Assembly: GCA_013334575.1 (NCBI GenBank)
Contig: JAAXXG010000002.1
Location: forward strand, 69,377 to 133,376
Direction of reading: 5' to 3'
From: Candidatus Moraniibacteriota bacterium
Lineage (GTDB): Bacteria > Patescibacteriota > Minisyncoccia > Moranbacterales > UBA1568
Length of the DNA: 64,000 nt
Below the pieces are notes generated by a model. That model did not search any database. It saw only the letters and a program-made list of their open reading frames with translations, and was not told the origin of the DNA. The first letter of the stretch is position 1; each line of letters begins with the position of its first letter. Both the position numbers and the translations under genes were made by a program. Shown here piece by piece: positions 17,284 to 63,781 of this stretch.

Positions 17284-17340
17284 ATTCTCCGCGATATTTC
17301 CGTCGAGGAACCGGGCGGTCGTATTCCTGATGTTCCCACT
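17284..17340 (-). pseudogene. duplicated fragment of the 3' end of nucleotidyltransferase gene 17873..18373
   Basis: About 90% identical to 17884..17940, which encodes the C-terminus EHQEYDRRFLDGYIANL, and carries a 1-nt indel. Lies downstream of the intervening 126-aa ORF. Confidence 0.5.
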
Positions 17341-17392
17341 CAAGCGGTTCTGATTAGCAAAAGATCCGCAAGTGATCTTTTGCTTGCGGATC

Positions 17393-17773
17393 TTATATCA
17401 CCGGAACCGATGGTGACGGATTCGATTCCCGCCACTCCTTAACACACTGCTCCACCGCGTCTTCATGATGCCGAACAGTCACGCTCACGTCTCCGATTTT
17501 CAGTACTTGTATTTTCATTACTTCTAAATATAATTGTCCCCCTTTCTCGACATGAAAAATATTATTTCCTAGCAAGTCGTCGGGTTTTTCCGTACAGATG
17601 ATAGTCGGAACGTCGATTATGCGGAAACACGCTCTTCCTCTAATTTTTCCGACATACGGCCCGATAAGCTCGCCGGATTCCCCTGGCTTGATGACGACAT
17701 CCGGTCCGTATTCGCAATCATGTACTGTCGCGTATGCGATCACGTTAAACGACGTTGCGTTGATAATTTTCAT
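17393..17773 (-). CDS. hypothetical protein (lower-GC ORF between direct repeats)
   Basis: 126-aa ORF, noticeably AT-richer than its flanks. Bounded by the two copies of the nucleotidyltransferase 3'-end repeat. Confidence 0.45.
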   Translation of the reverse strand: MKIINATSFNVIAYATVHDCEYGPDVVIKPGESGELIGPYVGKIRGRACFRIIDVPTIICTEKPDDLLGNNIFHVEKGGQLYLEVMKIQVLKIGDVSVTVRHHEDAVEQCVKEWRESNPSPSVPVI

Positions 17774-17872
17774 CCTACACCTCGGATTTATTTTTTGATG
17801 GATTATGCTGAAAAACTACAACCGATGAGAATACTGCCGTTTGAAAATATTGTCAACATCGGCAATATGTTC

Positions 17873-18373
17873 TCATCCTTTCCTCAAATTGGCGATATAT
17901 CCGTCAAGAAACCGGCGGTCGTATTCCTGATGTTCCCCGTCGAGGTGTTCCTTGTACTCGCGCAGCACCCGAGGGTCCATGAGCATGACAGAGACATTGT
18001 CGATCTCCATCCTCACGTCCGGATATCGGCCGTAGATCTCCCGGTTCCGGATCCACACCGCCCCGCCCTTGTCGCGCATGAGAAGCGTATCGGCGTCGGT
18101 CAGGTCGATGTCCTGTCCGTGATACGAGAGCGAGAGCGTCTCACAGTCCCACTTCTCGGTCAGATAGTGCTTCGGTCCCGCGACGATATACTCCTTCACA
18201 AGCGGGACGATGACCGGAAAAACCTTGCCGGAAATCGAGATGTCGATATCGTTCACCGGACGACCGGAACCGTAGAGCGCGGTCGCGAGTCCCCCGCCGA
18301 TCTGATACGGCACTCCGACCCCGTCGAGCACCCCGACAATCCATTTCATTGCATTGATGGTTTTCGTGATCAC
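17873..18373 (-). CDS. small nucleotidyltransferase, Lnu(A)/ANT-like family
   Basis: GGGLATALYGSGRPVNDIDISI matches the GG-x-G-x(n)-DIDI nucleotidyltransferase motif. 166 aa, similar in size to Lnu(A)-type enzymes (161 aa). Confidence 0.5.
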   Translation of the reverse strand: MITKTINAMKWIVGVLDGVGVPYQIGGGLATALYGSGRPVNDIDISISGKVFPVIVPLVKEYIVAGPKHYLTEKWDCETLSLSYHGQDIDLTDADTLLMRDKGGAVWIRNREIYGRYPDVRMEIDNVSVMLMDPRVLREYKEHLDGEHQEYDRRFLDGYIANLRKG

Positions 18374-20168: not shown

Positions 20169-20795
20169 CTAAACATCGTTGATCGATATATCTGCGACCC
20201 CAGACACCGGGTTGCGCCAAAAAAAGATTCTTCTCCGTTCAATTACGAGTATCAGGGTCATATTCACGACCGAAAGGTAAACCGGAAATGCAAGACCGGA
20301 AAAATTCCATGATTCCACGACTGCAAACCCCGTCAAGGCATTCAGCAGACCGGTAAGAAATGCAACAGCGGATTCTGATTCTGGATGACTCCACGACTTC
20401 ATGATCGTAGGTACGGCAGCAAGCAAATCGCTAGCTATCGCAAAAACAATGGCAATATTTGGCTCCTTGGTAATTCCCCATAAAACAAGCGCGAGCAAAG
20501 AAAACAGACCGCATGCATAATCGGACGTTTGTAGTCTCCAGAATCCCTTTCTATTTAAGAACGATGCGAGAAAGACAAGAAATGGAATGAATCCGGACAT
20601 AAATACCGGAACGACTGCGAGACCGACCCCCTTCGCAATCCCCGCTCCCGTTGCAATCATCGGCGCAATCGACCACAAAAGCCACGAAATCCGGTTCGGG
20701 CGAGTTCTCCCCGCCAAAGTTTCTCGGATATACGCGAATCCACCGAACAGATTTATCGCCGCACCCACAAAAACAAGATATGCCATATCGATCAT
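20169..20795 (-). CDS. integral membrane protein, unknown function
   Basis: 208 aa with 5-6 hydrophobic helices. Confidence 0.45.
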   Translation of the reverse strand: MIDMAYLVFVGAAINLFGGFAYIRETLAGRTRPNRISWLLWSIAPMIATGAGIAKGVGLAVVPVFMSGFIPFLVFLASFLNRKGFWRLQTSDYACGLFSLLALVLWGITKEPNIAIVFAIASDLLAAVPTIMKSWSHPESESAVAFLTGLLNALTGFAVVESWNFSGLAFPVYLSVVNMTLILVIERRRIFFWRNPVSGVADISINDV

Positions 20796-36123: not shown

Positions 36124-37050
36124 ATGGAAACGATCGTCGTGGTCGGACCGACCGCGTCGGGAAAATCCGACTATGCCATCTCGCTCGCGCGCGAGACCGG
36201 CGGAGAGATCGTCTCCGCCGATTCGCGGCAGGTCTACCGCGGGATGAATATCGGCACCGGGAAGGTTCCCAGAGATACGTTCAATGTAGAGACGGGGCAT
36301 ACCCCGTCTCTACGGAATGACATTTCGTATATCTCCGGCGGTATCCGGCATCACCTTCTCGACGTCGCCTCGCCGAAACGGACCTATACCGTCACGCATT
36401 TCCTCCGTGATGCCAGGGCGGCGATCGACGACATACGGAAACGCGGCAAAACGCCCATCATCTGCGGCGGGACGAACTTCTGGATAGAGGCGCTCGTCTC
36501 CGATACCTCGTTTCCCGCGGTCAGACCCGATCCGCCCCTCCGAAAAACGCTCGGCCGACTCACCGCGCCCGAACTCTTCACGATGCTCGAGGAAAAGGAC
36601 CCCGACCGCGCGAAGACGATCGACCGTCACAATAAGGTCCGGCTCATCCGGGCACTCGAGATCGTCGCGACGCTCGGTAAAGTACCGACAAGCGGAACAA
36701 GGACTCAAGAATCAGGAATGAAGCGGGATGAGAAATTCCGATTCATCGGAGTCGATATCTCACGAGAACAGTTACGTGAAAATATCGTGAGACGACTCGA
36801 TAAGCGGCTCCGGGAAGGGATGGTCGACGAAGTACGACGGCTCCGCGAGGAAGAAGGAATCTCCTGGAAGCGCCTCGAGGGATTTGGACTCGAGTACCGC
36901 TGGTGCGCGCTGTTCCTTCAAGGAAAGATAACGGAAACGGAACTGCGCGACGGTATCACCCGCGACAGCCTCTCCTACGCCAAGCGGCAAATGACGTTTC
37001 TTCGGAAACTGGAACGAAACGGGATACGGATAGAATGGAGGAGAATTTGA
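36124..37050 (+). CDS. miaA: tRNA dimethylallyltransferase
   Basis: P-loop GPTASGKS, DSRQVYRGMNIGTGK and HHLLD motifs. Contains a 28-nt palindromic element in-frame at 36286-36313. Confidence 0.85.
   Translation: METIVVVGPTASGKSDYAISLARETGGEIVSADSRQVYRGMNIGTGKVPRDTFNVETGHTPSLRNDISYISGGIRHHLLDVASPKRTYTVTHFLRDARAAIDDIRKRGKTPIICGGTNFWIEALVSDTSFPAVRPDPPLRKTLGRLTAPELFTMLEEKDPDRAKTIDRHNKVRLIRALEIVATLGKVPTSGTRTQESGMKRDEKFRFIGVDISREQLRENIVRRLDKRLREGMVDEVRRLREEEGISWKRLEGFGLEYRWCALFLQGKITETELRDGITRDSLSYAKRQMTFLRKLERNGIRIEWRRI
36286..36313. repeat. perfect 28-nt palindromic element (REP-like), copy 1, inside the miaA coding sequence
   Basis: gtagagacggggcataccccgtctctac is translated in frame as VETGHTPSL. 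Confidence 0.75.
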
Positions 37051-37063
37051 AATATCGAATTGG

Positions 37064-37100
37064 ACAGTAAAGACGCCTCAGTGGGGCGTCTTTTATGTTT
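37064..37100. terminator. bidirectional terminator / REP-like hairpin between miaA and the RAYT gene
   Basis: aagacgcc tcagtgg ggcgtctt stem followed by TTTATGTTTGATTT. The stem core gacgcc/ggcgtc resembles copy 3 of the palindromic element. Confidence 0.5.
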
Positions 37101-37632
37101 GATTTATCGGATTCTCCTCATCCGTATCCCATTCCCGAGGATTGATACGGATATATTCCTGGATCAACCGTAGAGACTCCTCGTTCCGGATAATATGATC
37201 ATGGAATCGCGATTGCCATGAGAATCCGGATTCGGCATGCGACGCCCGGATTCTTTTCGTACAAACAGATTTGAACGACCCGACAATCGTCGCCAAAGTC
37301 GGTCGTTTTCGTGGTTCACTGTTTTCCGTAGAGACGGGGCATGCCCCGTCTCTACACGGAAGGATCTCGATGATTCCGTGAACATGATTCGGCATTACAA
37401 CAAATTCATCCGTTCGGATATCTCGAAAATGGTCCGGGATACTACCCCAGCAATCCCGGACGATTTCCCCGATTCCGGATAATGTCATCTCCCCGTTTTC
37501 GATATCGCCGAACCAGAGACACCGATCCGCGGCACAGATGGTCACGAAATATGCGCCAGGTTGGGAATAATCATATCCGGGTAAGCGTGATGATCGAATC
37601 CTGTATTTGCCTTTGTAGTTATCCGCTACCAT
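37093..37632 (-). CDS. REP-associated tyrosine transposase (RAYT, IS200/Y1 family)
   Basis: YRIRSSRLPGYDYSQPGAYFVTICAADR; HuH motif VVMPNHVHGIIEI; C-terminal WQSRFHDHIIRNEESLRLIQEYIRINPREW. Flanked by REP-like hairpins. Confidence 0.75.
   Translation of the reverse strand: MVADNYKGKYRIRSSRLPGYDYSQPGAYFVTICAADRCLWFGDIENGEMTLSGIGEIVRDCWGSIPDHFRDIRTDEFVVMPNHVHGIIEILPCRDGACPVSTENSEPRKRPTLATIVGSFKSVCTKRIRASHAESGFSWQSRFHDHIIRNEESLRLIQEYIRINPREWDTDEENPINQT
37327..37354. repeat. 28-nt palindromic element, copy 2, inside the RAYT coding sequence
   Basis: gtagagacggggcatgccccgtctctac, read on the minus strand as CRDGACPVST. Confidence 0.75.
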
Positions 37633-37667
37633 AAACGTACATACATCATATCCGATTCCCTATAACG

Positions 37668-37696
37668 GTAGAGACGCCCCGGCGGGGCGTCTCTAC
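37668..37696. repeat. palindromic element, variant copy 3, upstream of the RAYT gene
   Basis: gtagagacgcccc ggc ggggcgtctctac has the same outer arms with an inverted inner core. Confidence 0.7.
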
Positions 37697-42557: not shown

Positions 42558-42800
42558 TCAGGCCGTATACGGCGTGATTGCAAGGAATGAGAACTGACCG
42601 ATATTCACGCCTGCCTCAGTATTGAGGTGCGCGACTCGATCTCCTCTTTTTCCGGCGGAACTGATATAGGAAACCACAAAAGGACCTTCCGAATGAGCAT
42701 CCTTTTTATGCCCGTAATCAGGATGGTCGGGATTCCACGTCACCAGATCGCCGACTTCGAACATGACCTTCCTCTCACTCAATTTCTCCGTTTGAGACAT
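42558..42800 (-). CDS. hypothetical small protein
   Basis: 80-aa ORF. Weak support only. Confidence 0.3.
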   Translation of the reverse strand: MSQTEKLSERKVMFEVGDLVTWNPDHPDYGHKKDAHSEGPFVVSYISSAGKRGDRVAHLNTEAGVNIGQFSFLAITPYTA

Positions 42801-43914: not shown

Positions 43915-44015
43915 GACGACAGCGGGAAGGTTTTTTCGTTTCAAGCCCCTCCTTTCCGATTTCATCAAAAAAATGAGGCTCATATAAGCCTCATTATTTG
44001 ATCGTTTCGGATTTC
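43915..44015. repeat. intergenic repeat element A (about 100 nt, terminator-containing)
   Basis: Near-identical to B at 44677..44774. Contains a hairpin aatgaggctcatataagcctcatt with an A-run before and a T-rich run after, acting as a bidirectional terminator. Confidence 0.7.
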
Positions 44016-44132
44016 TGACAAAATGAAAGCGTTTGCCTCAGGCAACACCCGGAATTTTGACAGCACCGAAAGAACCCTATAACATGCCAAAAAAAGCCCT
44101 TTCCCATCAACCGAACGATTCCCGGAGGCAAC

Positions 44133-44624
44133 ATGCGAACGCAACGAAGCTATTATCTCGCCGCATTTCTTGGCGCGCTATATGCGCCGATTCTCGGGAC
44201 GGTCTACCCGGACGCCTTGTCGATCGAAGTACCGCTTAGTGTATCCGTAACAGTTGCGGCCGTCTTTATACTGGTCTTCTCCACGCTCCTTCGAAGAAAC
44301 GGTTTCCGCTCCGCGCTTGGGGTAGCGGGTTACCAACTGGCATACCTGACAACTCTACTGTCGCTCGCGGTACAATATCTTAAACATGGAACCGGAGCAG
44401 TCGCTCCCGCCTTCTTCGGAACATTCGCCCATTCTTCCGTTACTGTTCTTTCCTCGATTCAAGACGAGAAATTCCTACTGGTATTTATCTGGACGGCTGT
44501 CGCCATGAACAATGCCATGGTGTACCTTCATCCGCCAATCCACGTATTGTGGACCGTCGCCCTCATGTTCTACGTCCTCTACGGACTGTCCGAGGAGCCC
44601 GAGACGATCGCTCCGGAATCGTAG
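44133..44624 (+). CDS. small integral membrane protein
   Basis: 163 aa with 5 hydrophobic helices. Flanked by repeats A and B. Confidence 0.45.
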   Translation: MRTQRSYYLAAFLGALYAPILGTVYPDALSIEVPLSVSVTVAAVFILVFSTLLRRNGFRSALGVAGYQLAYLTTLLSLAVQYLKHGTGAVAPAFFGTFAHSSVTVLSSIQDEKFLLVFIWTAVAMNNAMVYLHPPIHVLWTVALMFYVLYGLSEEPETIAPES

Positions 44625-44676
44625 GGCCTGTGCCGAATCAAGAATGAAGCCTCCCCGCTCGAATCATCGCAAGATG

Positions 44677-44774
44677 ACGACGGGGAGGTTTTTTCGTTTC
44701 AAACCCCTCCTTTCCGATTTCATCAAAAAAATGAGGCTCATATAAGCCTCATTATTTGATCGTTTCGGATTTCG
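44677..44774. repeat. intergenic repeat element B
   Basis: Same element as A, with an additional upstream stem cctccccg ... cggggagg followed by TTTTTT. Confidence 0.7.
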
Positions 44775-44864
44775 GGCAAAATCTGAACCTATGAACGTCC
44801 CTCGTGATCCGGTAAGAAAGAAGCCCGTGTTCTTGGAACACGGGCCTCGAAAAGAACATACCTG

Positions 44865-46029
44865 TCAGAGGTTCGTCATGATGGCCTCCCCCATCGCCTC
44901 GGTACCGAGAATCATATCGCGGTTATCAACCAGCCTCGCCAAATCCGCGGTACGATATCCCGCCAAAAGCGTCTTCTCCACCGCCTTCTCGATAGCCCCC
45001 GCACCAACCTTCGCTCCGATATGACGAAGCATCATCGCAGCCGTCAGGATCCGACCGATAGGATTCACCTTATCCTTCCCCTTAAGGTCGCAGGCCGTTC
45101 CCGCTCCGCTCTCGAACATTGCGGAACCGGTTTCCGGATTCACGGCGGAACTGCACATCATACCAAGACTTCCCAGCATGCCAGCAGCGCCGTCGGAGAG
45201 AATGTCGCCGTGTTCGTTTCCGCACATGATGACTCCCGCAAGCTTCATCGGCATGCCGAGCAGTGCGTTCGCCGCATCGACATACAGATGGGAAAGCGGG
45301 ACATCGGGGAATTCTGCCTTTCCGATCTCGGTCGCCATTTTCCGCCACAGTACGTAGCGAGCCATCACGTTCGTCTTATCGATCGAGATGACCGGAAGAC
45401 CGCGCTCCCGGGCATACCAAAACACGGCACGCATGTACTTCAGGAGCGTCTCGCGACGATAATAGGCAAGTTCAACGACCGCCTCCTCATCCCCGACGAC
45501 TTCCTTCTTCAACTTGATCATCAACTGGTCCCGCACTCCGCAACCGATATGATCATACAGATCCGAAGTGCCAAAGTAACTGTCCTCGAGCAGCATCCGG
45601 ACGAAAACCTGTACTATACCATCCGATGGGATATTTTCCGGCCGCACGAGACACAGATGATCCAGCGACTTGTGATAGACGACCGGCCGGAAGTTGAGCA
45701 ACAAGCCCATTTCCTTGCGCAGGGCAAGTAATGCCCGTGCTTCCGGCATCATCTCCGGATGTTTCACGCCGAGCGTCTTATCAATCTCAGTATCCCCCAC
45801 TCCTCCGAAGAAGAGTGTCCCGATCTCCACTGCTCGTTTCAACGACTCGGCAGGAAGCGTATCGCCGAATTCCCTGAAGGCGTTCCACCCCATCGGCGTT
45901 TTTTCGAAGACGATCTCGATACCGTCCTTTTTCGCGGCTTCGATGGCGACCGCACATGCGGCCGCCATCATTTCCGGAGCCGCCCCGTCGCCCGTCACGA
46001 GCGCGATTCGAACTTCCCTTCCTTCTTTC
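44865..46029 (-). CDS. isocitrate/3-isopropylmalate dehydrogenase family (LeuB-like)
   Basis: IALVTGDGAAPEMM, a GSLGMMCSSAV region and a dehydrogenase C-terminus. Start assigned to TTG at 46027-46029, preceded by AAAGGAGGG, to avoid a 115-nt overlap with the upstream gene. Confidence 0.7.
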
Positions 46030-46051
46030 AAGAGTCCCTCCTTTTGTTGAT

Positions 46052-48019
46052 TTACAGCTTTCCTTCCGCCTGCAATCCGGCGGCTGTCTCGAACATGAAC
46101 GGGATGACTCCGCCTTTCCTGAGCAGCTCCTTCTGCAGCCAGGTAAGCTTGAACGGAATCTCCCACATGTCCTCACCCGCCGTACCGACGCGGACCACAC
46201 CCTCGTCCGGAAGCACTTCGACCGTGTCCGGTCGCCTCTCACGCAGGTCATTCATGACCTCGTCCGGGAGTTCGACACACAGCAGGCCGTTCGCAAACAT
46301 GCTGGCACTGAAAATACGTGCGAAGCTCGACGCGATAACGCATGTGATTCCAGCCTCGAAAAGGGACCAAGGAGCATGTTCACGCGACGAACCGCAACCG
46401 AAGTTCTTACCAGCGACCAGTACGCTCGACCGGAACAGCCGTTCCTGTTCCTCCCCGGTCAGGTCGACCCCTTCAAGACAGTGCTGTCCAAGCCCGGTTT
46501 TCACGGACGTCGTCAGGTACTTCGCCGGGATGATGACATCCGTATCGACATTGTCCCCTCTCTTCCCCTGGAGATACAAGACTTTCCCCGAGAACTCCGG
46601 CTTGACCGTGATGCGCGTGGCCCGATGCAGTACGCCGTAGTCCGGCCGACTCAACTCGGTCACCCCATCCCAGTCTGTGAGATTGAGCGGATGACCTTCT
46701 TCGGACATGCTCGCGATATCGTCGAGCACACGTCCACACAGCTCCGGACTCGGCACCGCGACGCTTCCCGTCATGGCCGACAACGCCGCCACCGCCGGAG
46801 AACAGAGATGCACCATACCGCCCTTACCCATCCTTCCCTTGAAGTTCCGGTTACTGGTCGAAATGCACACCTCTCCGGGAGCGAGGACGCCTCCGCTCAT
46901 ACCCAGGCACGGTCCGCACGTCGCTGACATGACGACGCATCCCGCGGCCATGAATACATCGATGAGACCCTCATACAAAGCTCGCCGATAGATATGCTGC
47001 GTCGCCGGAATAACGATACACCGCGTACCGTCAGCGATCCTGCCGCCGAAATCACGCATGATGCCGGCCGCGATGCGCAGGTCTTCCAGGCGTCCGTTCG
47101 TGCAGGATCCGATGAACACCTGCTGAAACGGCATACCCTCCAGATCGGACGCTGGCACGACATCGGCCGGGGTATACTCCACCGTGATGAGCGGCTGCCT
47201 GTCAGTCACGTCGATCGTGATGACCTGATTATACTCGGCATTCGGGTCGCTGTTCCACGCCAGCAATTCCTCTTCCTCATATCCCGCCGACTCGATGAGC
47301 GGCCGCAGATATTCGATGGTCTTGTCGTCCACCGCCACCATACCGGATGTCGCCCCGGCCTCGACCACCATGTTCGTCATGGTCATCCTCGCCTCCATGC
47401 TGAGCGCCTCCACGACCGGCCCGCCGAATTCGATGACCGCATTCGTCGCGCCGGCAACTCCCATCACCTCGATCAGCATCAGGATGAGGTCCTTGGCGAA
47501 CACGTTCGCCGGGAGTGTCCCGACATACTCGACGCGGATCACCCGCTGAGGCTGACAGAACCAGAGCTCGGTCGAAACGGCCGCCATCATCTCCGAAGTC
47601 CCGACTCCCGCGGTAAGCGCACCGAACGCGCCACCGGTACAGGTATGACTGTCACCCATGACGGCAATCTGCCCCGGGAACAGCCACCCGCTCTCGGGAA
47701 AAAGCGCGTGACAAACGCCCCCCTGCCCCGCATCGCGGAATTCGATGCCGTGTTCCTTACACCATTTTCGCAGCGTATCGGCCTGAAACGCCGTCGCCTC
47801 GTCGTTGGACGGGCAGACGTGGTCGATCGTCGCTTTTATCCTGTTCGGATCGAATACCACGTCACAGCCGCGGGCCTTCATGTCCACGATACCAGGAGGC
47901 GTCGTGATTTCATGACAGAAGACCTGATCCACTTTCAGCACCATGGTCCCGTCCGGAAGCGTTTTCAGCAAATGCGCATCGACGATTTTCTGATACGCCG
48001 TTTTTCCTCGTTTCTGCAT
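46052..48019 (-). CDS. aconitase-family hydro-lyase, fused large+small subunit (LeuC/LeuD-like)
   Basis: 655 aa. Fe-S cluster cysteines in GSCTNGR and TCGPCLG contexts, and a LeuD-like swivel domain at the C-terminus. Confidence 0.8.
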   Translation of the reverse strand: MQKRGKTAYQKIVDAHLLKTLPDGTMVLKVDQVFCHEITTPPGIVDMKARGCDVVFDPNRIKATIDHVCPSNDEATAFQADTLRKWCKEHGIEFRDAGQGGVCHALFPESGWLFPGQIAVMGDSHTCTGGAFGALTAGVGTSEMMAAVSTELWFCQPQRVIRVEYVGTLPANVFAKDLILMLIEVMGVAGATNAVIEFGGPVVEALSMEARMTMTNMVVEAGATSGMVAVDDKTIEYLRPLIESAGYEEEELLAWNSDPNAEYNQVITIDVTDRQPLITVEYTPADVVPASDLEGMPFQQVFIGSCTNGRLEDLRIAAGIMRDFGGRIADGTRCIVIPATQHIYRRALYEGLIDVFMAAGCVVMSATCGPCLGMSGGVLAPGEVCISTSNRNFKGRMGKGGMVHLCSPAVAALSAMTGSVAVPSPELCGRVLDDIASMSEEGHPLNLTDWDGVTELSRPDYGVLHRATRITVKPEFSGKVLYLQGKRGDNVDTDVIIPAKYLTTSVKTGLGQHCLEGVDLTGEEQERLFRSSVLVAGKNFGCGSSREHAPWSLFEAGITCVIASSFARIFSASMFANGLLCVELPDEVMNDLRERRPDTVEVLPDEGVVRVGTAGEDMWEIPFKLTWLQKELLRKGGVIPFMFETAAGLQAEGKL

Positions 48020-48182
48020 GTTCGTCCCCTGTTTTCGTTGAGTGAATATACTATTTGTTAAACAAAACGGATCCTACAGTGCAGGATCTCGTGCCATTCC
48101 GATATACCAGGAAACGACTCGTATAGCAAGCGGATAATGACATTTACGACTTCAAACCGTCTTTTGGCCACAATCTTCCCAG

Positions 48183-48238
48183 TTTCACCAAAAAAATGAG
48201 GCTCATATAAGCCTCGTTATTTGATCGTTTCCGATTTC
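48183..48238. repeat. intergenic repeat element C (core of the A/B family)
   Basis: tttcaccaaaaaaatgaggctcatataagcctcgttatttgatcgtttccgatttc. Confidence 0.65.
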
Positions 48239-48284
48239 GGGCAGAACCGGGCAGATTCTGGAAACGTTACATAATCTGACGACC

Positions 48285-48401
48285 GCATTATTTTGTAACG
48301 TTTTCTGAGCGATGGATGGAAACGACTTGGTAGATGATTGTGTCGATCGCGGTCACGGTCAGCACCGGCATATCGTCTTCCGTCGCACGGATGAGGTTCA
48401 T
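48285..48401 (-). pseudogene. detached 5' fragment of the GNAT acetyltransferase gene (copy X)
   Basis: rc encodes MNLIRATEDDMPVLTVTAID ...; the first ~50 nt match the start of 50113..50574. Confidence 0.5.
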
Positions 48402-48556
48402 AGCGACCCAGCTCTTCAGGATCGTATCAGGCCCCTTTTCCGATTCCAGATAGCGTTTCGTTCCGTCAATTATTTTTTTCCACGCGAGCGGAATGTTTTT
48501 TTATCTAAAAAAAGCAGGTCCCACATTCGTGAGACCTGCTAAATACTCTCCTTTCA

Positions 48557-50112: not shown

Positions 50113-50574
50113 TTATATAGAATCGTCTCTTTCTTTCGTGTCACACTCCCTCGTCATGATGATCCGAGGCTGTCCGTCGCCGTAGAGATTATCCTCCCGA
50201 CCGGAAGCGACGAAGCCGAGCGACTCATAGAGCTTCACGGCGTGATTGTCCGGGTGAACGTCGAGGCTCACGCGGTCGAATTCCCGCAATTCCTCGAGCA
50301 GCATTCCCATAGCCTTTCGGGCCAATCCCCTCCGTTGGAACTCGGGCGCGATAATAAGTCCGCTCACGTAGGCATAATCGGTATCCTTCACCCGGTAGGA
50401 GATATCCCCGACGATCACTCCGTCCTCCTCGATCAGATAGACAGTCTCGTCGCGGATCCACTGCCGCATCTCCTCGTCGGTGAAACCCCAGTTGTAGACA
50501 ATCAGATCCCTCGCGGTCTCCTCGATCGCGGTCAGTACCGGCATATCGTCTTCCGTCGCACGGATGAGTTTCAT
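50113..50574 (-). CDS. GNAT family N-acetyltransferase
   Basis: MKLIRATEDDMPVL start, acetyl-CoA motif RRGLARKAMGMLLEEL. 153 aa. Confidence 0.75.
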   Translation of the reverse strand: MKLIRATEDDMPVLTAIEETARDLIVYNWGFTDEEMRQWIRDETVYLIEEDGVIVGDISYRVKDTDYAYVSGLIIAPEFQRRGLARKAMGMLLEELREFDRVSLDVHPDNHAVKLYESLGFVASGREDNLYGDGQPRIIMTRECDTKERDDSI

Positions 50575-50745
50575 AAGATCACATATCATTCATGATCGTA
50601 TTCCTCTCCTGTTTTGATAGACTATCAACAAAAATATCGCCTTTCCAAGCCATAAAATGACACTTGATTTATCTAAGATTTTATGATATCATAAAACGTT
50701 GTGCCTTCATAATCTATAAGCATACTCTCGAGGAGGAGAGTCATC

Positions 50746-51192
50746 ATGCCAAAACTTCTCAAATACGGGCTTTCAACCCTGGGCGTCTGTGGCATTTTTG
50801 CGATTATCATCGTAGCGATGCTTAGCCGCGGGACTTTCGGTCATCTCGTGCCACTATCGGACGAGGATCTGAAAACGATTACCGAGGTGACTACGCAGGA
50901 TTCGAATTCATCCATCGCGTTCCGTTCCCATTCGGAAATACTACGGTGCGGCCCGCTTTCGCTTCGAAAAACAAGCCGCATCTCGGCATTCGTTTTTCGT
51001 GGAGAACCTATCTCGGCGCGCAAGACCGTCATGTACGGTTCACTCCGGTTCGGCAACCAAGCAGACGAAATGATGCCCCCGCTCCGAATACCAGACGGTG
51101 CGAACTCAATGTACTGGTATGAATGCGGCAACACCACCGTATCCCTTGGATCCATACCGGATCCGCATATCGGAATCGGATTCAATTTCTGA
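50746..51192 (+). CDS. hypothetical membrane-anchored protein
   Basis: GAGGAGG RBS, N-terminal TM helix, 148 aa, followed by a terminator. Confidence 0.4.
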   Translation: MPKLLKYGLSTLGVCGIFAIIIVAMLSRGTFGHLVPLSDEDLKTITEVTTQDSNSSIAFRSHSEILRCGPLSLRKTSRISAFVFRGEPISARKTVMYGSLRFGNQADEMMPPLRIPDGANSMYWYECGNTTVSLGSIPDPHIGIGFNF

Positions 51193-51292: not shown

Positions 51293-51390
51293 GCGATCAT
51301 GACCATTGCATTGAATTTGCCGTCCTTCTCGGTCTCCTCGATCGCAGTCAGCACCGGCATATCGTCTTCCGTCGCGCGGATCAAGTTCAT
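51293..51390 (-). pseudogene. detached 5' fragment of the GNAT acetyltransferase gene (copy Z)
   Basis: rc encodes MNLIRATEDDMPVLTAIEETEKDG... then a stop after 32 codons. About 90% identical over ~60 nt to the start of 50113..50574. Confidence 0.5.
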
Positions 51391-51394
51391 AGGA

Positions 51395-51850
51395 CTATAA
51401 GGAATCGCTCGTCTTGTGGAACGGCTTCCCGGTTTCGAGGAATGAAAAGATTCCCGCCTTGAGGGAATCGGGAAGAATGTGATGCTCGCGAAGCGAATCC
51501 GCAGATACGACCGCGAACTCGAGATGATCCTCCTGCGATCCGAGAGATATTCCCGTCGGAACCCGGACCTCGAAGACGAAATTCACCTCGTGCTGACTCG
51601 ACGTCTCCGATATCGGAAATGCGTTTTCGCAGACACCGACGAGATCGCCGATCAGATAGTCTCCCTCTCCGAGTTCCTCGACGAGTTCGCGGGCGAGCGC
51701 CGATCGTGCGGATTCCCCGTCTTCCACGTGTCCCCCTGGCAGAAAATTCCAATCCTTGCCCTTCAATCGACAAAGGATCACGTCTTCGCCTTGCCGAAGC
51801 AGCGCCCGCGAAATGAAATGTATATGCGATTCAGGAGCTTCGTAGGTCAT
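51395..51850 (-). CDS. NUDIX hydrolase
   Basis: Canonical Nudix box GGHVEDGESARSALARELVEELGE. Confidence 0.75.
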   Translation of the reverse strand: MTYEAPESHIHFISRALLRQGEDVILCRLKGKDWNFLPGGHVEDGESARSALARELVEELGEGDYLIGDLVGVCENAFPISETSSQHEVNFVFEVRVPTGISLGSQEDHLEFAVVSADSLREHHILPDSLKAGIFSFLETGKPFHKTSDSL

Positions 51851-51859
51851 ATATAATCA

Positions 51860-52411
51860 TTATTCAGATAGCTTACGAAATATATCCTCATTAAGCAATT
51901 CTTCAGATGTTTTATTTATTTCGTTTAGATATGAACGCAATGTTTTTAAATCTAGTTTAATAAAATCCCCATATACCCCATCTTTATCGACGCCAATTTT
52001 CGTCAATACGACAAAGTCATTGCCCATTTCCAACCAACGAGCGTGTATAGCCTTATTCCTTATTACGGCCGCTTCTTTTAATCTCAAATGTAATGATGCA
52101 TACAAAGAAGACAACTCCGGTTTTCCAACATGTTTGCACATGGGAACAAAAAAATCTCTAAACAAATCGACTTTTTGTGAAAAAGTTAGTTTCGCAATAA
52201 CCGTGTAGCCTAAATCACTGGACCTAGAATGAATAAAACTAGTTAGCACATCATCAAGAACACTCTCAAGATAATTAAAGTCCAATATAATTTCCCCAAG
52301 TATCAGCTTTATTTGCTTCAATTTCGCAGCTGATATCGTTGTATCGAAATCATGATTAAAACTCCCATCATCGAGATATATTTTCATATAATTATTTTGG
52401 TTTCGCTCCAT
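51860..52411 (-). CDS. hypothetical protein in an AT-rich island, possible HEPN-like domain
   Basis: GC drops sharply over 51860-52440. R-x4-H motif in AAVIRNKAIHARW. 183 aa. Confidence 0.4.
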   Translation of the reverse strand: MERNQNNYMKIYLDDGSFNHDFDTTISAAKLKQIKLILGEIILDFNYLESVLDDVLTSFIHSRSSDLGYTVIAKLTFSQKVDLFRDFFVPMCKHVGKPELSSLYASLHLRLKEAAVIRNKAIHARWLEMGNDFVVLTKIGVDKDGVYGDFIKLDLKTLRSYLNEINKTSEELLNEDIFRKLSE

Positions 52412-53061: not shown

Positions 53062-53703
53062 CTATCCTTCAGACCGCACAGATCTACTTGCCTCTTTTTT
53101 GGTCGTTTTCTTGGTTGTCTTGGCCGTGGACTTCTTGCCTTTGGCGAAGTTGAGATACATCTTGGACGCGACGGGCTTCTTGTCGCCGTAGTACTTGGAA
53201 TTGAGCCCCTCCGAGCCGTAGGGCTTCTCGCAGGGCGAGGAGAGCTCCTCGAAGGCGACCTGGCCGATTGCCATCTTGTAGTGAAGCTTGATCGGGAGGC
53301 GCCCCGCGTTGAAAAGCTCGAGGGTGAGCTTGAGCGAATTGCCCGGGTCGAGAAATCCCGCGGTCGTATGGATGATGAGCCCCAGGCGGCCGAGCGAGCT
53401 CTTGCCCTCGAGCCGGCAGGCGTAGCGGTCCGAGACGCCGGTCTCCTCGTAGATGAGGCCGAGCGCGAACTCGCCGGGATGCAGGATGAACGGCTCGTCC
53501 GGCCGGATTTCCATCGGCTTCATAAGGCCCTGCGTGGGGGCCTTGGGATCGATGACGAAGTTGTGTGTCGTATCGAAGACCAGGAAGTGTCGGTCGAGGT
53601 GGACGTCCACGCTCGCCGGCTGGACGTGCTTGCGGTTGAACGGCTTAATGGTGATGTCGCCCTTGCGAAGGGCCTTCACGATGTCGCGGTCGGAAAGGAT
53701 CAT
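53062..53703 (-). CDS. dcd: dCTP deaminase with Lys/Thr-rich C-terminal tail
   Basis: MILSDRDI ... PASVDVHL ... jelly-roll dUTPase-like core, plus a KKSTAKTTKKTTKKEASRS tail. Confidence 0.8.
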   Translation of the reverse strand: MILSDRDIVKALRKGDITIKPFNRKHVQPASVDVHLDRHFLVFDTTHNFVIDPKAPTQGLMKPMEIRPDEPFILHPGEFALGLIYEETGVSDRYACRLEGKSSLGRLGLIIHTTAGFLDPGNSLKLTLELFNAGRLPIKLHYKMAIGQVAFEELSSPCEKPYGSEGLNSKYYGDKKPVASKMYLNFAKGKKSTAKTTKKTTKKEASRSVRSEG

Positions 53704-53927
53704 AGGAGTCTTCGGTTATGGGGATCTGCCGACTCCCTCCGGCACCCATTGTACGGGAAAGGCCGATAAAAAGGAACCTTGGCAGAATTCCATCCCCGTG
53801 TCATCCCGAGCGCAGTCGAGGGATCCACGGATATATCAGGACCAGAGTCGATTCTCCTGGCAGATTCCTCCACTCGAAGACTCTCCGGCATTCGCCGGAC
53901 TCCGGGTCGGAATGACAAGACAAAAAA

Positions 53928-53993
53928 ACAGGCCCCGAGAAGGGCCTGCTTCTGCATTTCGTGCTGTCGGAAACTAGGAGAGCTTCACCGTGA
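53928..53993 (-). repeat. 66-nt direct repeat: duplicate of the rplA 3' end plus its terminator hairpin
   Basis: About 92% identical to 54751..54816. Includes rc ...VKLS* and the aggccc ... gggcct hairpin with a T-run. Confidence 0.65.
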
Positions 53994-54111
53994 CTCACCG
54001 AGTCCGGCAGGAACATAGGCCGGAAGACGCGTTTCTTCCGCGTGTCGGAGTCATAAAATGAAAGAGGAGAACCGATACCGGTTCTCCTCATTCTTGACGG
54101 AATGAATGATG

Positions 54112-54540
54112 TCAGGAGATGTTCCCCCGAATCCCATATACCGCTCGCGTGATGCTCAAGAGAATAAGGAACGCGAGCGCCAGCAGCACCGAGTGGGCCG
54201 TCATCGCCCCTCTCCAGTCAGTGAAGGAGTAGACGCCTGAAATCGCACAAGCGATCAATCCAAACGCCATGTTCGCCGTAAACAGGATGACGAGTCCGGT
54301 TAAAACCTGCGGTACCGAAATGGTCCTTGATGACTCGGGTAGGACCACATACCCGGCGAGCGCAAAGACGAAACATACACCCGCGTACTGAACGAGTGGC
54401 CGATGAAACAACGGCAACCCGATCCCATGCATCCACAGCAGGAAAGCCGTGATAGTCAGTGCTGCAAAAAACGCGGACAGAAAGAAAAACATCCCCGAAA
54501 GCCTTACTCTTTGTGGTAAGACGAACGCAAAATGATTCAT
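54112..54540 (-). CDS. small integral membrane protein
   Basis: AAGGGGG RBS. 4 hydrophobic helices. Lies between the two rplA-3'-end repeats. Confidence 0.45.
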   Translation of the reverse strand: MNHFAFVLPQRVRLSGMFFFLSAFFAALTITAFLLWMHGIGLPLFHRPLVQYAGVCFVFALAGYVVLPESSRTISVPQVLTGLVILFTANMAFGLIACAISGVYSFTDWRGAMTAHSVLLALAFLILLSITRAVYGIRGNIS

Positions 54541-54750
54541 GGTATCCCCCTTTAGCACTTCGTGCCTTAATTTATAGAGTTATTAAACACGAAATGACTC
54601 TAGCATTAAATCCATATAATGTCAAGTCTCTTCACATCAACACAGAAGTCATCTTCTTGTCGTCCAAGCGAGGGCAGGGCCTTTCCGTGCCGAGTAGAAG
54701 ATTCCCGCCTTCGCGGGAATGACCGATAGAGAAGGCTCGACGATACGAAA

Positions 54751-54816
54751 ACAGGCCCCGGGAAGGGCCTGTTTCGGCATTTCGTGCCGTCAGAAACTAG
54801 GAGAGCTTCACCGTGA
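54751..54816 (-). repeat. 66-nt direct repeat (true rplA 3' end and terminator)
   Basis: Overlaps the last codons and stop of rplA. Hairpin aggcccttcccggggcct followed by GTTTTCG. Confidence 0.65.
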
Positions 54817-55489
54817 TGCCCGGGCCCATGGTGGAGCAGAGCGTGATCGAGCGGATGAACTTCCCCTTGAGCGCCTCCGGCTTGGCCTTCTGGACCGCAT
54901 CGCGGAAGGCCTCGAAGTTGGCCGCGAGCTCCTCGGCCGAGAAGGAGAGCTTGCCGATCACCTGATGGACGTTCCCCGAGTCGTCGTTCTTGAAACTCGC
55001 CTTCTTTCCCTTGGAGAGCATCTCCACGGTCTCGGCGATCTTGGTCGTGACGGTCTCGTTCTTCGGGCTGGGCATGAGTCCCTTGGGACCGAGGATCTTG
55101 GCGACCTGCGCGAGCTTGGGCATCATATCGGGCGTCGCGAGCAGAAGGTCGAACGCCGACCCCGGCACCACCTTCCCCTCCTTGATCTGCGCGACGAGTT
55201 CCTCGCCGCCGACCAGGACCGCTCCGGCGTCCTGCGCCTCCTTTGCCTTGTCGACGGTCACCACGGCGACACGCTTCACCCGGCCGGTGCCGGAGGGAAG
55301 GACGACCGTGGCGCGGACCGCCTCGTCGGACTTCTTGGCGTTGATCGAGAGCTTCATGTGCGCCTCGACGGACTCGTCGAACTTCGCGACGGCATTCTCT
55401 TTGAGGAACGCGATCGCATCGGCAAGCGCGTACTCCTCCTTGTCGACCACCTTGCCCGCCGCCTGGCGGTACTTCTTCCCGTGCTTCAT
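54797..55489 (-). CDS. rplA: 50S ribosomal protein L1
   Basis: MKHGKKYRQA ... VVLPSGTG ... GKLSFSAEEL are typical L1 features. Confidence 0.9.
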   Translation of the reverse strand: MKHGKKYRQAAGKVVDKEEYALADAIAFLKENAVAKFDESVEAHMKLSINAKKSDEAVRATVVLPSGTGRVKRVAVVTVDKAKEAQDAGAVLVGGEELVAQIKEGKVVPGSAFDLLLATPDMMPKLAQVAKILGPKGLMPSPKNETVTTKIAETVEMLSKGKKASFKNDDSGNVHQVIGKLSFSAEELAANFEAFRDAVQKAKPEALKGKFIRSITLCSTMGPGITVKLS

Positions 55490-55556: not shown

Positions 55557-55982
55557 CTAGCCCTCCACCTTGATCCCCATCGAGCGGGCGGTGCCGGCCA
55601 CGATCTTGGCCGCCGCGTCCACGTCGTTGGCGTTCAGGTCCTCCATCTTCTGCTCGCCGATCTCGCGGACCTGCGCCATCGTAACGGTGCCGACCTTGTC
55701 CTTGAGCGGGTTCGCCGCGCCCTTCTCCACCTTGGCCGCCTTCTTCAGAAGCTCGGCTGCCGGAGGGGTCTTGAGCACGAAATCGAAAGTGCGGTCCTCG
55801 TACACGGTGATTTCCGCCGGGATGATGTCGCCCATCCGGTCCTTGGTCTGCTCGTTGAACTGCATGCAGAACCCCTGGATATTGAGTCCGTGCTGACCGA
55901 GCGCCGGACCGACCGGCGGAGCCGGGTTCGCCTTCCCGCCCGGGATCTGGAGCTTGATGACCGTCTTGATCGTCTTTGCCAT
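55557..55982 (-). CDS. rplK: 50S ribosomal protein L11
   Basis: [32 protein letters not shown]. Confidence 0.9.
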
Positions 55983-56025: not shown

Positions 56026-56571
56026 CTACGCCTTCTTCACCTGGAGGAAGTCGAGTTCCACCGGCGTCTCGCGTCCGAAGAGGGACACGAACACCTTGAG
56101 TTTCCCCTTCTCCTCGTCCACCTCCTCGACCTTGCCGTCGAAATTCTTGAACGGCCCGTCGGTCACCTTGACCACGTCGCCCTTGCGTACGTCCACCTTA
56201 TACTTCGGCTCCGAAACGCCCATGCGCTTCTTGAGGCCCTCGATCTCCTTGGGGTCGATCGGGGTCGGCGTGGTACCGAGACCGATGAAGCCGGTGACGT
56301 TCGGAGTGTTGCGGACCACGTACCACGACGCGTCGGTAACGACCATGTCGACGAGCACGTAGCCGGGATAGATGCGTTCCTCGACGGTGACGCGCTTCCC
56401 GCCCTTGATCTTGATCTTCTTCTCCTTCGGAACGAGGATGTCGAAGATGAAGTCCTGCATGTCCATCGACTCGATGCGCTGGCGCAGGTTGCGGGCGACA
56501 TTGTCCTCGTATCCGGAATACGTGTGGAGGACGTACCAGGCCCGGCCGTGATGCTGTGACTGCTTCGCCAT
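56026..56571 (-). CDS. nusG: transcription termination/antitermination factor NusG
   Basis: NGN domain [11 protein letters not shown] and [14 protein letters not shown]. Confidence 0.9.
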
Positions 56572-59975: not shown

Positions 59976-62060
<2,085 letters not shown>

Positions 62061-62083
62061 TCATACCGGGTTGTCACCGCCGA

Positions 62084-62704
62084 TCAGATCGAGCCGGCGG
62101 CATAATCGTAATCGCGCAACGAGACCGTGGATTGCAGACTCGTTCCGAGCGAGGAAGTCGGTGATTTCTTCACCGAAACAAAGACGGTCACCCGACCGAC
62201 CGAACCGCCCGGAGGATACTCCGTCGGATTCCTGGACGGGGTAGCTTCGAAATGTCCCGTCACCGACGAACCGCTTGAGGCGGTAAGGTTCTGCCACGAA
62301 CAGGAGGGGCTGCCGCACGCGTTCAGAATCCCGGACGTACACTGCGTCTTGACGCTGGTAATCGGCCCGCTTACGGACATCCAACGAGCCTGGATCGCCC
62401 CGGTTCCCGCATCGAACCGGTATCCGAAACAACGGCTGGTCGAATGATCGAAAAAGGTCATGGACTGCGAGGCGGCTTCGATAACCGTACTCGTCCGCAG
62501 GTATTTCGAAAGCGAGTTTACGGCGTACTGCGCCGACTCTATGTCGCGCTGGATTTCGCGAGAATTCCCGAACATGGAAAAAGCCGAGGAGGAAATAGCC
62601 GAGACTCCGGCAGATATCACCGCAAAAATTCCGATAGATACGATAAGCTCCACGAGGGAGAATCCCCGCATCTTCCGTTTCCTGGTTCCGCGCTTCGGTT
62701 TCAT
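62084..62704 (-). CDS. type IV pilin-like protein (prepilin N-terminal cleavage/methylation domain)
   Basis: Basic leader MKPKRGTRKRKMRG, then FSLVELIVSIGIFAVISAG. Confidence 0.6.
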   Translation of the reverse strand: MKPKRGTRKRKMRGFSLVELIVSIGIFAVISAGVSAISSSAFSMFGNSREIQRDIESAQYAVNSLSKYLRTSTVIEAASQSMTFFDHSTSRCFGYRFDAGTGAIQARWMSVSGPITSVKTQCTSGILNACGSPSCSWQNLTASSGSSVTGHFEATPSRNPTEYPPGGSVGRVTVFVSVKKSPTSSLGTSLQSTVSLRDYDYAAGSI

Positions 62705-62727
62705 ACTTTTCTTCGGACGGGATAATC

Positions 62728-63309
62728 CTACGGCCCCCATGGCGTAAGCGTCGACTCCGCGTAGACACAGCCGTTTCCGGCGCGACAATTCGCCCGGATA
62801 TCGGCCGCGTTCGCCGTATTGGAATACGACCCCCAATATACCGCACTGACACAGGTCACCTGTTCCTGCTGAGTGCCGCTCGAATAGGAAAGATATATCC
62901 TCCGTTTGAAACGCCCGCTGGTTCCGGTATGGATATAGTGCCCGCCGGACTCCGCCAGATCGAACGAAGACTGTCCGCAGGATATCTTGGTCGCCGGCGT
63001 ACTGAGCGCGGAGCTGGTAACGTCGATCCGGCAGTTGCTCGCGCTCCAGGGAGCGGACGACGTCGGCAGCCACGCGGTCAGGCTCCGATTTCCGGCCAGG
63101 ACGTTGTTATCCTTCACGTTCTTCAGGAGTTCAATTCCTTCCTGCGCGAGTTCGGATGCGGCGACGGTGTCCCGACTCCGTAACGAGGCATTGAATGCCT
63201 TCGTCGCCGATAACAGCACCGGAAGGATGCCGATAGTAAGAACGGCCACCGAAAGAAGTACTTCAAGGAGCGAGAAGCCTTTCAGATGTTTCGGTCTTGG
63301 ATTCCTCAT
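62728..63309 (-). CDS. type IV pilin-like protein
   Basis: MRNPRPKHLKG, then FSLLEVLLSVAVLTIGIL. Confidence 0.6.
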   Translation of the reverse strand: MRNPRPKHLKGFSLLEVLLSVAVLTIGILPVLLSATKAFNASLRSRDTVAASELAQEGIELLKNVKDNNVLAGNRSLTAWLPTSSAPWSASNCRIDVTSSALSTPATKISCGQSSFDLAESGGHYIHTGTSGRFKRRIYLSYSSGTQQEQVTCVSAVYWGSYSNTANAADIRANCRAGNGCVYAESTLTPWGP

Positions 63310-63328
63310 GTCTTTCTGCTTTTCCTCC

Positions 63329-63781
63329 TTAGCAACCCGAGCCGATCGGACGCTCCTCGACCCTCCCGAGCGGGTAGACGCAGACATGAGCCGTCACACC
63401 GCCTTTCGTGAGCGAGAAATCGACGGATCCGGAAACGAGTTCGACGCCTCCGGAATTTATCGGCTCTCCCTGCGGGACACGGAACGCCACCGCTTGAGAT
63501 GCCGATAAGACGACTCCGTCCGGCAAGTTCACCGCTCCCGACTGGAACGGAACGCAGGGAATCGACGAGCACGAGGAGATATTCTTTCCCGTGACAGCAT
63601 CGTTCTGCGCCTGCCGTAGGGCGGCGGCAACGACACGTTCACCCCCTTCGACCGCGCGACGCGCCTTGAACGGAACGAGGGAAGCCAGGGATGCCGTCGT
63701 AACGATGGCAATGAGTGCCGTCGTGATCATTATCTCGATAAGCGTGAACCCCGCTTCCGTTCGCTTCCGTTTCTTGCGCAT
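63329..63781 (-). CDS. type IV pilin-like protein
   Basis: MRKKRKRTEAG, then FTLIEIMITTALIAIV. Confidence 0.6.
   Translation of the reverse strand: MRKKRKRTEAGFTLIEIMITTALIAIVTTASLASLVPFKARRAVEGGERVVAAALRQAQNDAVTGKNISSCSSIPCVPFQSGAVNLPDGVVLSASQAVAFRVPQGEPINSGGVELVSGSVDFSLTKGGVTAHVCVYPLGRVEERPIGSGC

Follow-up and report, generated by a model that had tools for sequence, protein, structure and literature searches.

Bacterial genomes may hold segments that lie between long direct duplications of their target and carry no gene for their own mobility, and there is precedent for such insertions (PMC2853133, PMC3457768). In the class known as insertion with long target duplication (Nobusato et al. 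2000, Gene 259:99; Furuta et al. 2010, PMC2853133), the repeats measure from 46 to about 420 bp and occur just once in genomes that lack the insert. The inserted segments, of a few hundred base pairs to a few kilobases, have neither mobility genes nor inverted repeats, their guanine-cytosine (GC) content deviates, and some of the repeats overlap the 3′ end of a neighbouring gene (PMC2853133). Tandem duplication combined with homologous recombination has been described as an alternative route (Lim et al., PMC3457768). Here, we describe a locus of this kind in a stretch of 64 kb (the window) from the genome of an uncultured Candidatus Moraniibacteriota bacterium (Parcubacteria). In it, the 3′ end of rplA, the gene for ribosomal protein L1, is present twice together with its terminator, and the two copies enclose a 754-bp insert with one gene for a small, predicted membrane protein (the cargo gene). 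The insert is probably the result of a recombinase-independent capture of a foreign unit at the rplA terminator, with a target duplication of 69 bp. The locus fits insertion with long target duplication, which is a known, seldom recognised, and unexplained class, and not a new kind of mobile element.

Other described systems share some of these traits. Morons, as defined by Hendrix and Juhala (per PMC2839356), are independent promoter-gene-terminator units that usually carry orphan cargo and whose insertion mechanism is undefined. In T4-type phages, ORFan cassettes consist of orphan genes that are placed between direct repeats with a terminator stem-loop, the promoter-early-stem-loop (PeSL) elements (Arbiol et al. 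2010, PMC2839356). Homologous recombination at the repeats, for which no dedicated recombinase is used, brings about their gain, their loss, and the formation of mini-circles (PMC2839356). Finally, integrative and mobilizable elements (IMEs) have been found at the 3′ ends of ribosomal protein genes, and att-flanked relics of such elements are called cis-mobilizable elements (CIMEs) (Guedon et al. 2017, PMC5704250).

All of the genes around the junction of rplA and dcd, the gene for dCTP deaminase, are on the minus strand, and coordinates are those of the window. In gene orientation, the order is secE, nusG, rplK, rplA, a terminator, the insert, a second rplA end with its terminator, a 221-nt spacer, and dcd (Table 1). 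The direct repeat (53925-53993 and 54748-54816) is 69 nt long, and its two copies, which are 823 nt apart from start to start, are identical without gaps at 64 of 69 positions (92.8%; blastn E = 1.7e-20 within the window). In a first-pass annotation, made from the sequence alone, repeats with about 92% identity, containing the rplA end and the terminator, had been placed at 53928..53993 and 54751..54816; these are real, and their true extent is slightly wider. It had also been stated there that only the upstream copy is attached to rplA. This holds in gene orientation but not by coordinate, because the genes are on the minus strand and the attached copy is consequently the one with the higher coordinates.

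In a gapped local alignment of both neighbourhoods, homology is limited to the 69 nt. It begins at TCACGG, 20 nt ahead of the rplA stop, and stops after CCTGTTTT, the T-run of the terminator. Each copy therefore holds the last 20 nt of rplA with the stop codon, a spacer, and an intact terminator hairpin. Of the five mismatches between the copies (T/C, G/A, C/A, A/G, and C/T), three fall in the spacer, a fourth affects the hairpin loop, and the fifth converts an A-U pair to G.U. Both copies fold into a GC-rich terminator stem of 11-13 bp followed by a U-run, at -25 and -23.5 kcal/mol and with a z-score of about -3. A third copy of the repeat is absent from the window, in which there is likewise no tRNA and no Rfam family at gathering score.

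It had been considered from the beginning that the duplication might be a mis-assembly of a single terminator. This is excluded, as both copies and the cassette are present in four of four assemblies, which come from two metagenome-assembled genomes (MAGs) and two sequencing runs, and the copies differ at five positions. The strain of the window (strain A) matches Logan assembly SRR11449211, while a second strain (strain B, GCA_013336155.1) matches SRR11449212. Moreover, the copies have different flanks, and the private single-nucleotide polymorphisms (SNPs) of strain B are confined to the copy that is attached to rplA. An assembly artefact, or else a local tandem duplication followed by a separate insertion exactly between the copies or by a substitution through recombination with a diverged donor, is very improbable. 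It is true that short-read assemblies can break or mislead at repeats, and contig L003, for instance, ends inside rplA. Nevertheless, an artefact would have to account for the agreement, differences, flanks, and private SNPs just mentioned, whereas the two-step route would need an insertion exactly at the tandem junction, and this repeatedly at four loci. Nor is the insert a de novo product of duplication, as it does not stem from the DNA on its flanks and distant homologues of its gene exist at other places.

To compare the junction with that of related species, 80 loci around RplA homologues were fetched from GTDB species representatives. In more than 20 species of Moraniibacteriota, dcd directly follows rplA. 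In the six closest relatives (RplA 78-86% identical), the spacer between both genes is 212-387 nt long, has a single terminator, AAAACGGACCCTTTCCAGGGTCCGTTTTTT, and contains no homologue of the cargo gene. The corresponding spacer in the window measures 1094 nt; once the 823 nt of one repeat and the insert are subtracted, 271 nt are left, which falls within the range of 212-282 nt observed in four of the six. Across the more than 20 relatives, this match to an empty site is one of gene order and of a single terminator, since RplA identities of 86% or less mean that these genomes are too diverged for a base-by-base alignment of the 69 nt. Hence, the relatives do not show an identical arrangement, which would have spoken against an insertion, but an empty site. 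In consequence, the proposal of an insertion at the extreme 3′ end or terminator of rplA, which brought one small open reading frame (ORF) and kept the terminus intact, is borne out. The further claim that the insertion regenerated the terminus of its target is right in that rplA has an intact end and terminator, although for this end a duplicated target is the better reading, ahead of a replacement end borne by an element, two readings that are not formally separable without a conspecific empty site.

The same junction has been struck elsewhere. Another MAG of the Moraniibacteriota (L011) has an insertion of ~700 nt between rplA and dcd (L011 positions 6690-7617), with an unrelated ORF of 168 aa (6885-7391) that has an N-terminal hydrophobic segment, a TTGACA/TAGAAT promoter, and its own terminator. 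Terminator-derived sequence is found on both sides of it, with the similarity of the flanks decayed. This insertion is independent of the one in the window. In the relatives where rplA and dcd are adjacent, the spacer never exceeds about 930 nt, and thus none of them holds an element large enough for an integrase at this junction.

The inserted DNA has a GC content of 51%, compared with about 60-65% in the flanking rplA and dcd, and appears to be a complete promoter-gene-terminator transcription unit of foreign look. Its predicted promoter is of the sigma-70 type, and promoters are found in equivalent position in two homologous cassettes. A purine-rich sequence, AAAGGGGGA, similar to a ribosome-binding site, is located 5 nt ahead of the ATG, and the gene is followed by an intrinsic terminator of its own. 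In the public annotation, the cargo gene starts at Met17 and encodes 126 aa. However, both of its homologues align from residue 5-12 on, and this favours the upstream ATG at 54540 (142 aa; window 54492-54540) as the start. The earlier description of ORF 54112..54540 as a protein with four transmembrane segments agrees with the four hydrophobic helices seen in the 142-aa ORF, and the product would be a small integral membrane protein and a near-orphan. In effect, a word-indexed search of 5.8 billion clusters returned only the protein itself, and an exhaustive HMMER search of 1.84 billion representatives added two relatives with 37% identity. Overall, about 15 billion proteins yielded these two distant relatives. 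There were zero matches in Pfam, PADLOC, and PHROGs, and nothing was found when the family alignment was compared with metagenome and viral contigs. The AlphaFold model (mean predicted local distance difference test, pLDDT, of 78) is a generic four-helix bundle that has no significant neighbour in the PDB.

With respect to mobility, no gene of this kind is present in the insert, which has one ORF, or adjoining it, where the neighbours are rplA and dcd. No viral contig match and no PHROG match was obtained. As for the traits by which Furuta et al. delimit their class, the direct repeat, with 69 nt, exceeds 30 bp; the insert, with 754 bp and without a mobility gene, is below 20 kb; and the repeat, which occurs twice in 64 kb in a window that lacks tRNAs and Rfam matches, is not of a tRNA, att, or dispersed type.

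Table 1. Features of the rplA-dcd locus and of other repeat-flanked cassettes. Positions are those of the 64-kb window, except in the last row, where they refer to the loci of distant relatives.
Feature	Position	Strand	Remarks
nusG	56026-56571	-	Gene order
rplK	55557-55982	-	Gene order
rplA (ribosomal protein L1, 230 aa), host gene	54797..55489	-	Pfam Ribosomal_L1 E = 7.8e-50; secE-nusG-rplK-rplA synteny
Proximal 69-nt repeat copy	54748..54816	-	Attached to rplA; last 20 nt of rplA with stop, spacer, hairpin, TTTT
Inserted DNA, 754 bp	53994..54747	-	Not at the rplA-dcd junction of related species
REP-like hairpin GTCATTCCCGCGAAGGCGGGAAT	54700..54727	-	Near the rplA-side end of the insert; -13.7 kcal/mol
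Sigma-70-like promoter (predicted)	54597..54625	-	TTGACA-17 nt-TAGAGT with upstream TG
Cargo gene, 142 aa, near-orphan	54112..54540	-	Four hydrophobic helices
Intrinsic terminator of the cargo gene	54064..54089	-	11-bp GC-rich stem and T-rich tail; -23.4 kcal/mol, z = -6.2
Distal 69-nt repeat copy	53925..53993	-	Detached rplA 3′ end and terminator, 7-T run; runs on into the ancestral spacer
Ancestral rplA-dcd spacer	53704..53924	-	Two REP-like hairpins, ~53890-53916 and ~53800-53826
dcd (dCTP deaminase)	53062..53703	-	Pfam DCD E = 4.9e-39; adjoins rplA in relatives
17.3-kb cassette	17223-17950		ORF 17393-17773 (126 aa, orphan), own terminator; in both strains
43.9-44.8-kb cassette	ORF 44133-44624		163-aa membrane ORF; between two D1 copies
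50.5-51.4-kb cassette	ORF 50746-51192		148 aa, hydrophobic helix at the N-terminus; flanked by a detached relic and by the GNAT 5′ end proper
Upstream direct repeats	L051 846-934 / 1538-1627; L037 5210-5303 / 7376-7467; L036 4111-4303 / 4502-4694		Possible duplicated leader or promoter modules

In the explanation that we favour, a foreign, self-contained promoter-gene-terminator unit would have entered at the rplA terminator. This could have happened through two nicks with a stagger of about 69 nt, between which exogenous DNA was ligated and the gaps were filled in. Alternatively, replication may have switched template at the terminator hairpin, proceeded on foreign DNA, and returned to the chromosome at a point 69 nt upstream. 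Nicks or template switch, the molecular route is one that we infer. The copy on the rplA side would then preserve the C-terminus of L1, the stop codon, and the terminator, while the copy on the dcd side would keep a terminator by which dcd is shielded from the new gene. As the last codons, the stop codon, and the complete terminator all lie within the duplicate, the insertion would be neutral to both essential neighbours, and such neutrality would explain why events of this type survive at gene ends. Once present, the direct repeats would permit loss of the cassette, circle formation, and re-integration through ordinary homologous recombination. Domains of pilin (N_methyl) and prepilin-peptidase (A24) type are encoded in this genome, and we assume that they serve in DNA uptake.

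The same architecture is observed at other sites of the window. At 17.3 kb, where the first-pass annotation had already pointed it out, a small ORF is flanked by two copies, ~70 nt long and ~85% identical, that correspond to the 3′ end of host gene 17873-18373. The 5′ end of a gene for a GNAT acetyltransferase is found three times in direct orientation (48319-48427, 50507-50602, and 51323-51415), once in the real gene and twice as a detached relic, and these copies bracket a GNAT-TPM gene pair as well as a cassette. At 43.9-44.8 kb, the flanks are formed by D1, an intergenic repeat that contains a terminator and whose flanking copies (128-160 nt) are 91-96% identical; it is located at 43952, 44710, and 48175, with a more distant copy at 20085. 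The inserts of the cassettes in the window measure 525-754 bp and have 44-53% GC, whereas the repeats, of about 45 to 160 nt, are unrelated in sequence from one cassette to another. The cargo proteins at 17.4 kb and 44.1 kb are likewise orphans. An alignment of the four cargo proteins had been proposed as a search for shared features; no common family is detectable among them.

One of these regions differs between the two strains. Strain B lacks window positions 44016-48175 (4.16 kb; within 43952-48246), with the 163-aa membrane ORF, a gene of the isocitrate/isopropylmalate dehydrogenase family, and a gene of 655 aa. In its place, there is a single D1 copy of ~70 nt, whose left flank corresponds to the copy at 48.2 kb and whose right flank corresponds to that at 43.9 kb. 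At the three variable bases of the D1 core, strain B fits an undivided ancestral target slightly better than the product of a single-crossover deletion. Segments bounded by repeats are thus gained or lost as units within the population.

Not all of the atypical genes of the region have such flanks. Between the genes for a HAD hydrolase and a NUDIX protein, there is an orphan gene of 183 aa (51860-52411; 33-37% GC, with a GC content at third codon positions, GC3, of 0.30) that is separated from its neighbours by spacers of 29 nt and 9 nt and is without flanking repeats. Foreign genes would therefore also enter the region without target duplication. Flanking repeats are absent as well from two other low-GC genes of the window, 20169-20795 and 42558-42800.

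An integrase or recombinase encoded elsewhere that could act in trans had been envisaged as a possible agent behind the cassettes. Such an enzyme finds no support: none is encoded in the insert, the repeats are unrelated and of ~45-160 nt, and neither inverted repeats nor common end motifs were found. The best inverted match between the ends of a cassette measures 9-16 nt, which is at chance level, in all five cassettes tested, and no end motif is common to six cassettes beyond chance. The only recombinase-like gene among the scanned or annotated ORFs of the window encodes a Y1 transposase similar to those of IS200 and of the REP-associated tyrosine transposases (RAYTs) (37093-37632, minus strand; Pfam Y1_Tnp E = 5e-5, GC3 0.51). 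It is flanked (37064-37692) by hairpins of 28 nt, ACRGTARAGACGCC...GGCGTCT, that resemble repetitive extragenic palindromes (REPs), and a similar hairpin is found ~800 nt away (about 36290-36320), so that this gene looks like a RAYT with its REPs. To our knowledge, enzymes of this type make no target duplications. Three REP-like hairpins of the type GTCATTCC...GGAATGAC / GTCATCCC...GGGATC are also clustered just downstream of both terminator copies of the rplA-dcd locus (53800-53916 and 54700-54727). Elsewhere in the window, only one further partial match to their end motif falls in a hairpin context, at ~36314, beside the REP-like hairpin of the Y1 transposase.

Direct repeats with the 3′ end of a target gene are also the signature of elements moved by a tyrosine recombinase. 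The locus might then be a CIME-like relic, in which the 3′ end of rplA served as attB, the element supplied a replacement end for the gene, the integrase was later lost, and attL and attR were left behind around one cargo gene. In streptococci, the 3′ ends of the ribosomal genes rplL, rpsI, rpmE, and rpmG are indeed sites of IMEs (PMC5704250), and the independent strike on the rplA-dcd junction in L011 would agree with such an origin. We nevertheless judge this origin to be quite improbable. There is no integrase in the insert, adjoining it, or among the scanned ORFs of the 64-kb window, and the rplA-dcd spacers of the relatives, at about 930 nt or less, leave no room for an integrase-sized element. 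Furthermore, four cassettes with unrelated repeats of different length cannot have a single att core in common, and a clean promoter-gene-terminator unit of 754 bp is atypical of the decay of an element of several kilobases.

Further types of element were considered and rejected. A transposon or miniature inverted-repeat transposable element does not agree with the lack of terminal inverted repeats and of common end motifs, nor with duplications that are long and variable (about 45 to 160 nt). In the case of an integron cassette, attC-like cores (RYYYAAC...GTTRRRY) were not seen by inspection, the repeat holds coding sequence of rplA, and no intI was found among the scanned ORFs. The template and variable repeats of a diversity-generating retroelement were discarded because the mismatches between the copies are not adenine-specific and are mostly non-coding, with four of the five outside the coding part, and no reverse transcriptase domain was found among the scanned ORFs.

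Strains A and B have eight differences in the last ~250 nt of rplA (window 54790-55040), with one K/R change, and four of the eight fall inside the proximal repeat; over the next ~6 kb, down to ~48.7 kb, both strains are 100% identical. This pattern suggests a recombination endpoint inside the repeat. At another site, window 62000-63705, the strains are ~72% identical, compared with 99-100% otherwise. Pilin-like (N_methyl) genes are located there beside a prepilin peptidase gene, and the segment has the appearance of a hypervariable surface locus.

In a Campbell-type integration, a circle with the cassette and an rplA end and terminator would cross over at the resident terminator, and both copies would be hybrids of donor and recipient. 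The circle could come from a related strain, by excision through recombination between the same repeats. A 69-nt repeat is of sufficient length for RecA-type recombination. A diverged donor would be expected to produce a divergence of 7% between the copies, and such an origin would also agree with a repeat that stops exactly at the end of the terminator, with strain differences in the rplA end that stop inside the repeat and are followed by ~6 kb of identity, and with an indel between the strains that is bounded by 70-nt repeats. Mini-circles of this sort are documented for the PeSL cassettes of T4-type phages (PMC2839356). Nevertheless, a Campbell integration accounts for the spread of the cassette and not for its origin, as an earlier event must have placed it beside an rplA end. 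In addition, no donor of the cassette was found anywhere, its cargo being a near-orphan, and the unrelated repeats of the other loci would each require a pre-formed circle of their own. During transformation, moreover, DNA enters in linear, single-stranded form. On balance, we regard this integration as rather unlikely.

The homologues of the cargo gene give a mixed picture. In a 391-kb metagenomic scaffold (L091), the homologue is found between direct repeats of 71 nt at 96% identity, which extend to ~95 nt and are 783 nt apart. This locus was initially taken as an independent target duplication, a reading that was dropped when a wider scan showed a multi-copy repeat family, with at least four GC-rich copies of ~130 nt in 5 kb (L091 positions 5756-5867, 6535-6633, 8557-8678, and 10487-10609). 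Each copy is downstream of a different accessory gene (the cargo homologue, a Fic gene, and others) and is followed by a terminator. The repeat is without a match in Rfam, and covariation gives no support for a structure. The array could have arisen by serial insertions at one terminator-proximal site, but a dispersed repeat, or linker repeats that serve homologous shuffling, would account for it equally well, so that the pattern is suggestive and no more.

Several observations weigh against capture with target duplication at the rplA terminator. First, the repeats of the L091 array, as a family of at least four copies, are not a unique duplicated target and give no independent proof, and the other cargo homologue (L086) has no flanking repeat above chance. 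Second, the divergence of 7% between the copies is compatible with age or with a diverged donor. Third, the right-hand boundary of the repeat coincides with the exact end of the terminator T-run, which is naturally explained by homology borne by a donor, while a random stagger would explain it only through selection. Fourth, a conspecific empty site was not found in exact-protein look-ups or when JGI metagenomes were scanned for exact DNA matches to the rplA end; without it, a common origin of both copies from one resident target is not demonstrable against the import of one copy with the insert. Finally, no enzyme or intermediate was identified, and in the class described in PMC2853133, where most cases are from naturally competent species, the mechanism is unknown too.

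If recombinase-independent capture is accepted for this locus, it might be part of a wider process. In Moraniibacteriota, and perhaps widely in the Candidate Phyla Radiation (CPR), orphan genes might be captured systematically, as promoter-gene-terminator units, at terminators and gene ends, with target duplications of 45-160 bp, on a platform that would be similar to an integron but free of an integrase. Serial strikes on a single terminator would then build arrays of repeats, of which D1 (44-48 kb) and the array in L091 would be examples, and the repeats would let cassettes exit as circles and re-enter related genomes. We put this forward tentatively, as a generalization that we consider unlikely. 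If true, it would provide a testable model of accessory-gene turnover in uncultured bacteria.

Regardless of its generality, the way in which lineage-specific orphan genes are gained beside essential operons in the tiny, streamlined genomes of the CPR is poorly understood. The rplA-dcd locus offers a clean, multiply assembled case, and its duplicated target makes clear why neither rplA nor dcd is harmed by the insertion. Its architecture is found repeatedly within 64 kb, with polymorphism between two strains that co-occur. The locus also yields a rule for annotation, in that detached gene ends and duplicated terminators are a sign of recent gene gain.

Repeats of other forms were observed in the loci of relatives. 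In L029, there are nested repeats in a region without clear ORFs. In distant relatives, direct repeats of 90-190 nt are located just upstream of nusG, rplK, secE, or unrelated genes and reach into their first codons; these may be duplicated leader or promoter modules.

Insertion sequences of the IS1634/IS1630 type can, by staggered cleavage, yield long and variable target duplications in bacteria. They are ~1.5-2 kb in length and have a DDE transposase and terminal inverted repeats, and neither the gene nor the repeats are found in the insert at rplA. The target duplications of IS1630 measure 19-26 bp (cited in PMC2853133). CIMEs and IMEs are closer in some respects, as a ribosomal gene contributes its 3′ end to the repeats, the target is left intact, and some relics lack an integrase. 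In contrast, those elements rely on tyrosine-recombinase att sites that are common to a given specificity, and at the rplA-dcd locus no integrase, relaxase, or full-length element was seen.

The insert is also similar to a moron, since it is an autonomous unit of deviating composition between two undisturbed genes. However, morons are defined in phages and prophages and are not marked by long target duplications, whereas this unit is in the core chromosome. By location it is not a phage moron, as its context, secE-nusG-rplK-rplA/dcd and housekeeping genes, is not phage. With PeSL cassettes, the locus shares an orphan gene bracketed by direct repeats that contain a terminator. Nevertheless, PeSLs are a conserved, multi-copy family of linkers, while the repeat at rplA is a unique duplication that has two copies only, includes rplA coding sequence, and lacks a promoter, so that a PeSL-like linker cassette was rejected here. 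That feature is found instead in the D1 family (20085, 43952, 44710, and 48175), which, as does the L091 array, resembles PeSL cassettes.

The closest likeness is to the insertions described by Furuta et al., with which the locus shares direct repeats that exceed 30 bp and vary in length, the absence of an integrase, a transposase, or inverted repeats, a deviating GC content, and an overlap with a gene end. That class differs in carrying mainly restriction-modification cargo, whose DNA cleavage has been suggested as the cause of the duplication, and in being known mostly from Proteobacteria. At the rplA-dcd locus, the empty site is documented in other species only, and the insert carries one orphan gene for a membrane protein, without a nuclease, in a member of the CPR with several such events in 64 kb. 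The class is thus extended beyond restriction-modification genes, in which a cargo nuclease was thought to be causal, and a cargo that is not a nuclease argues for a mechanism that is host-encoded or based on replication.

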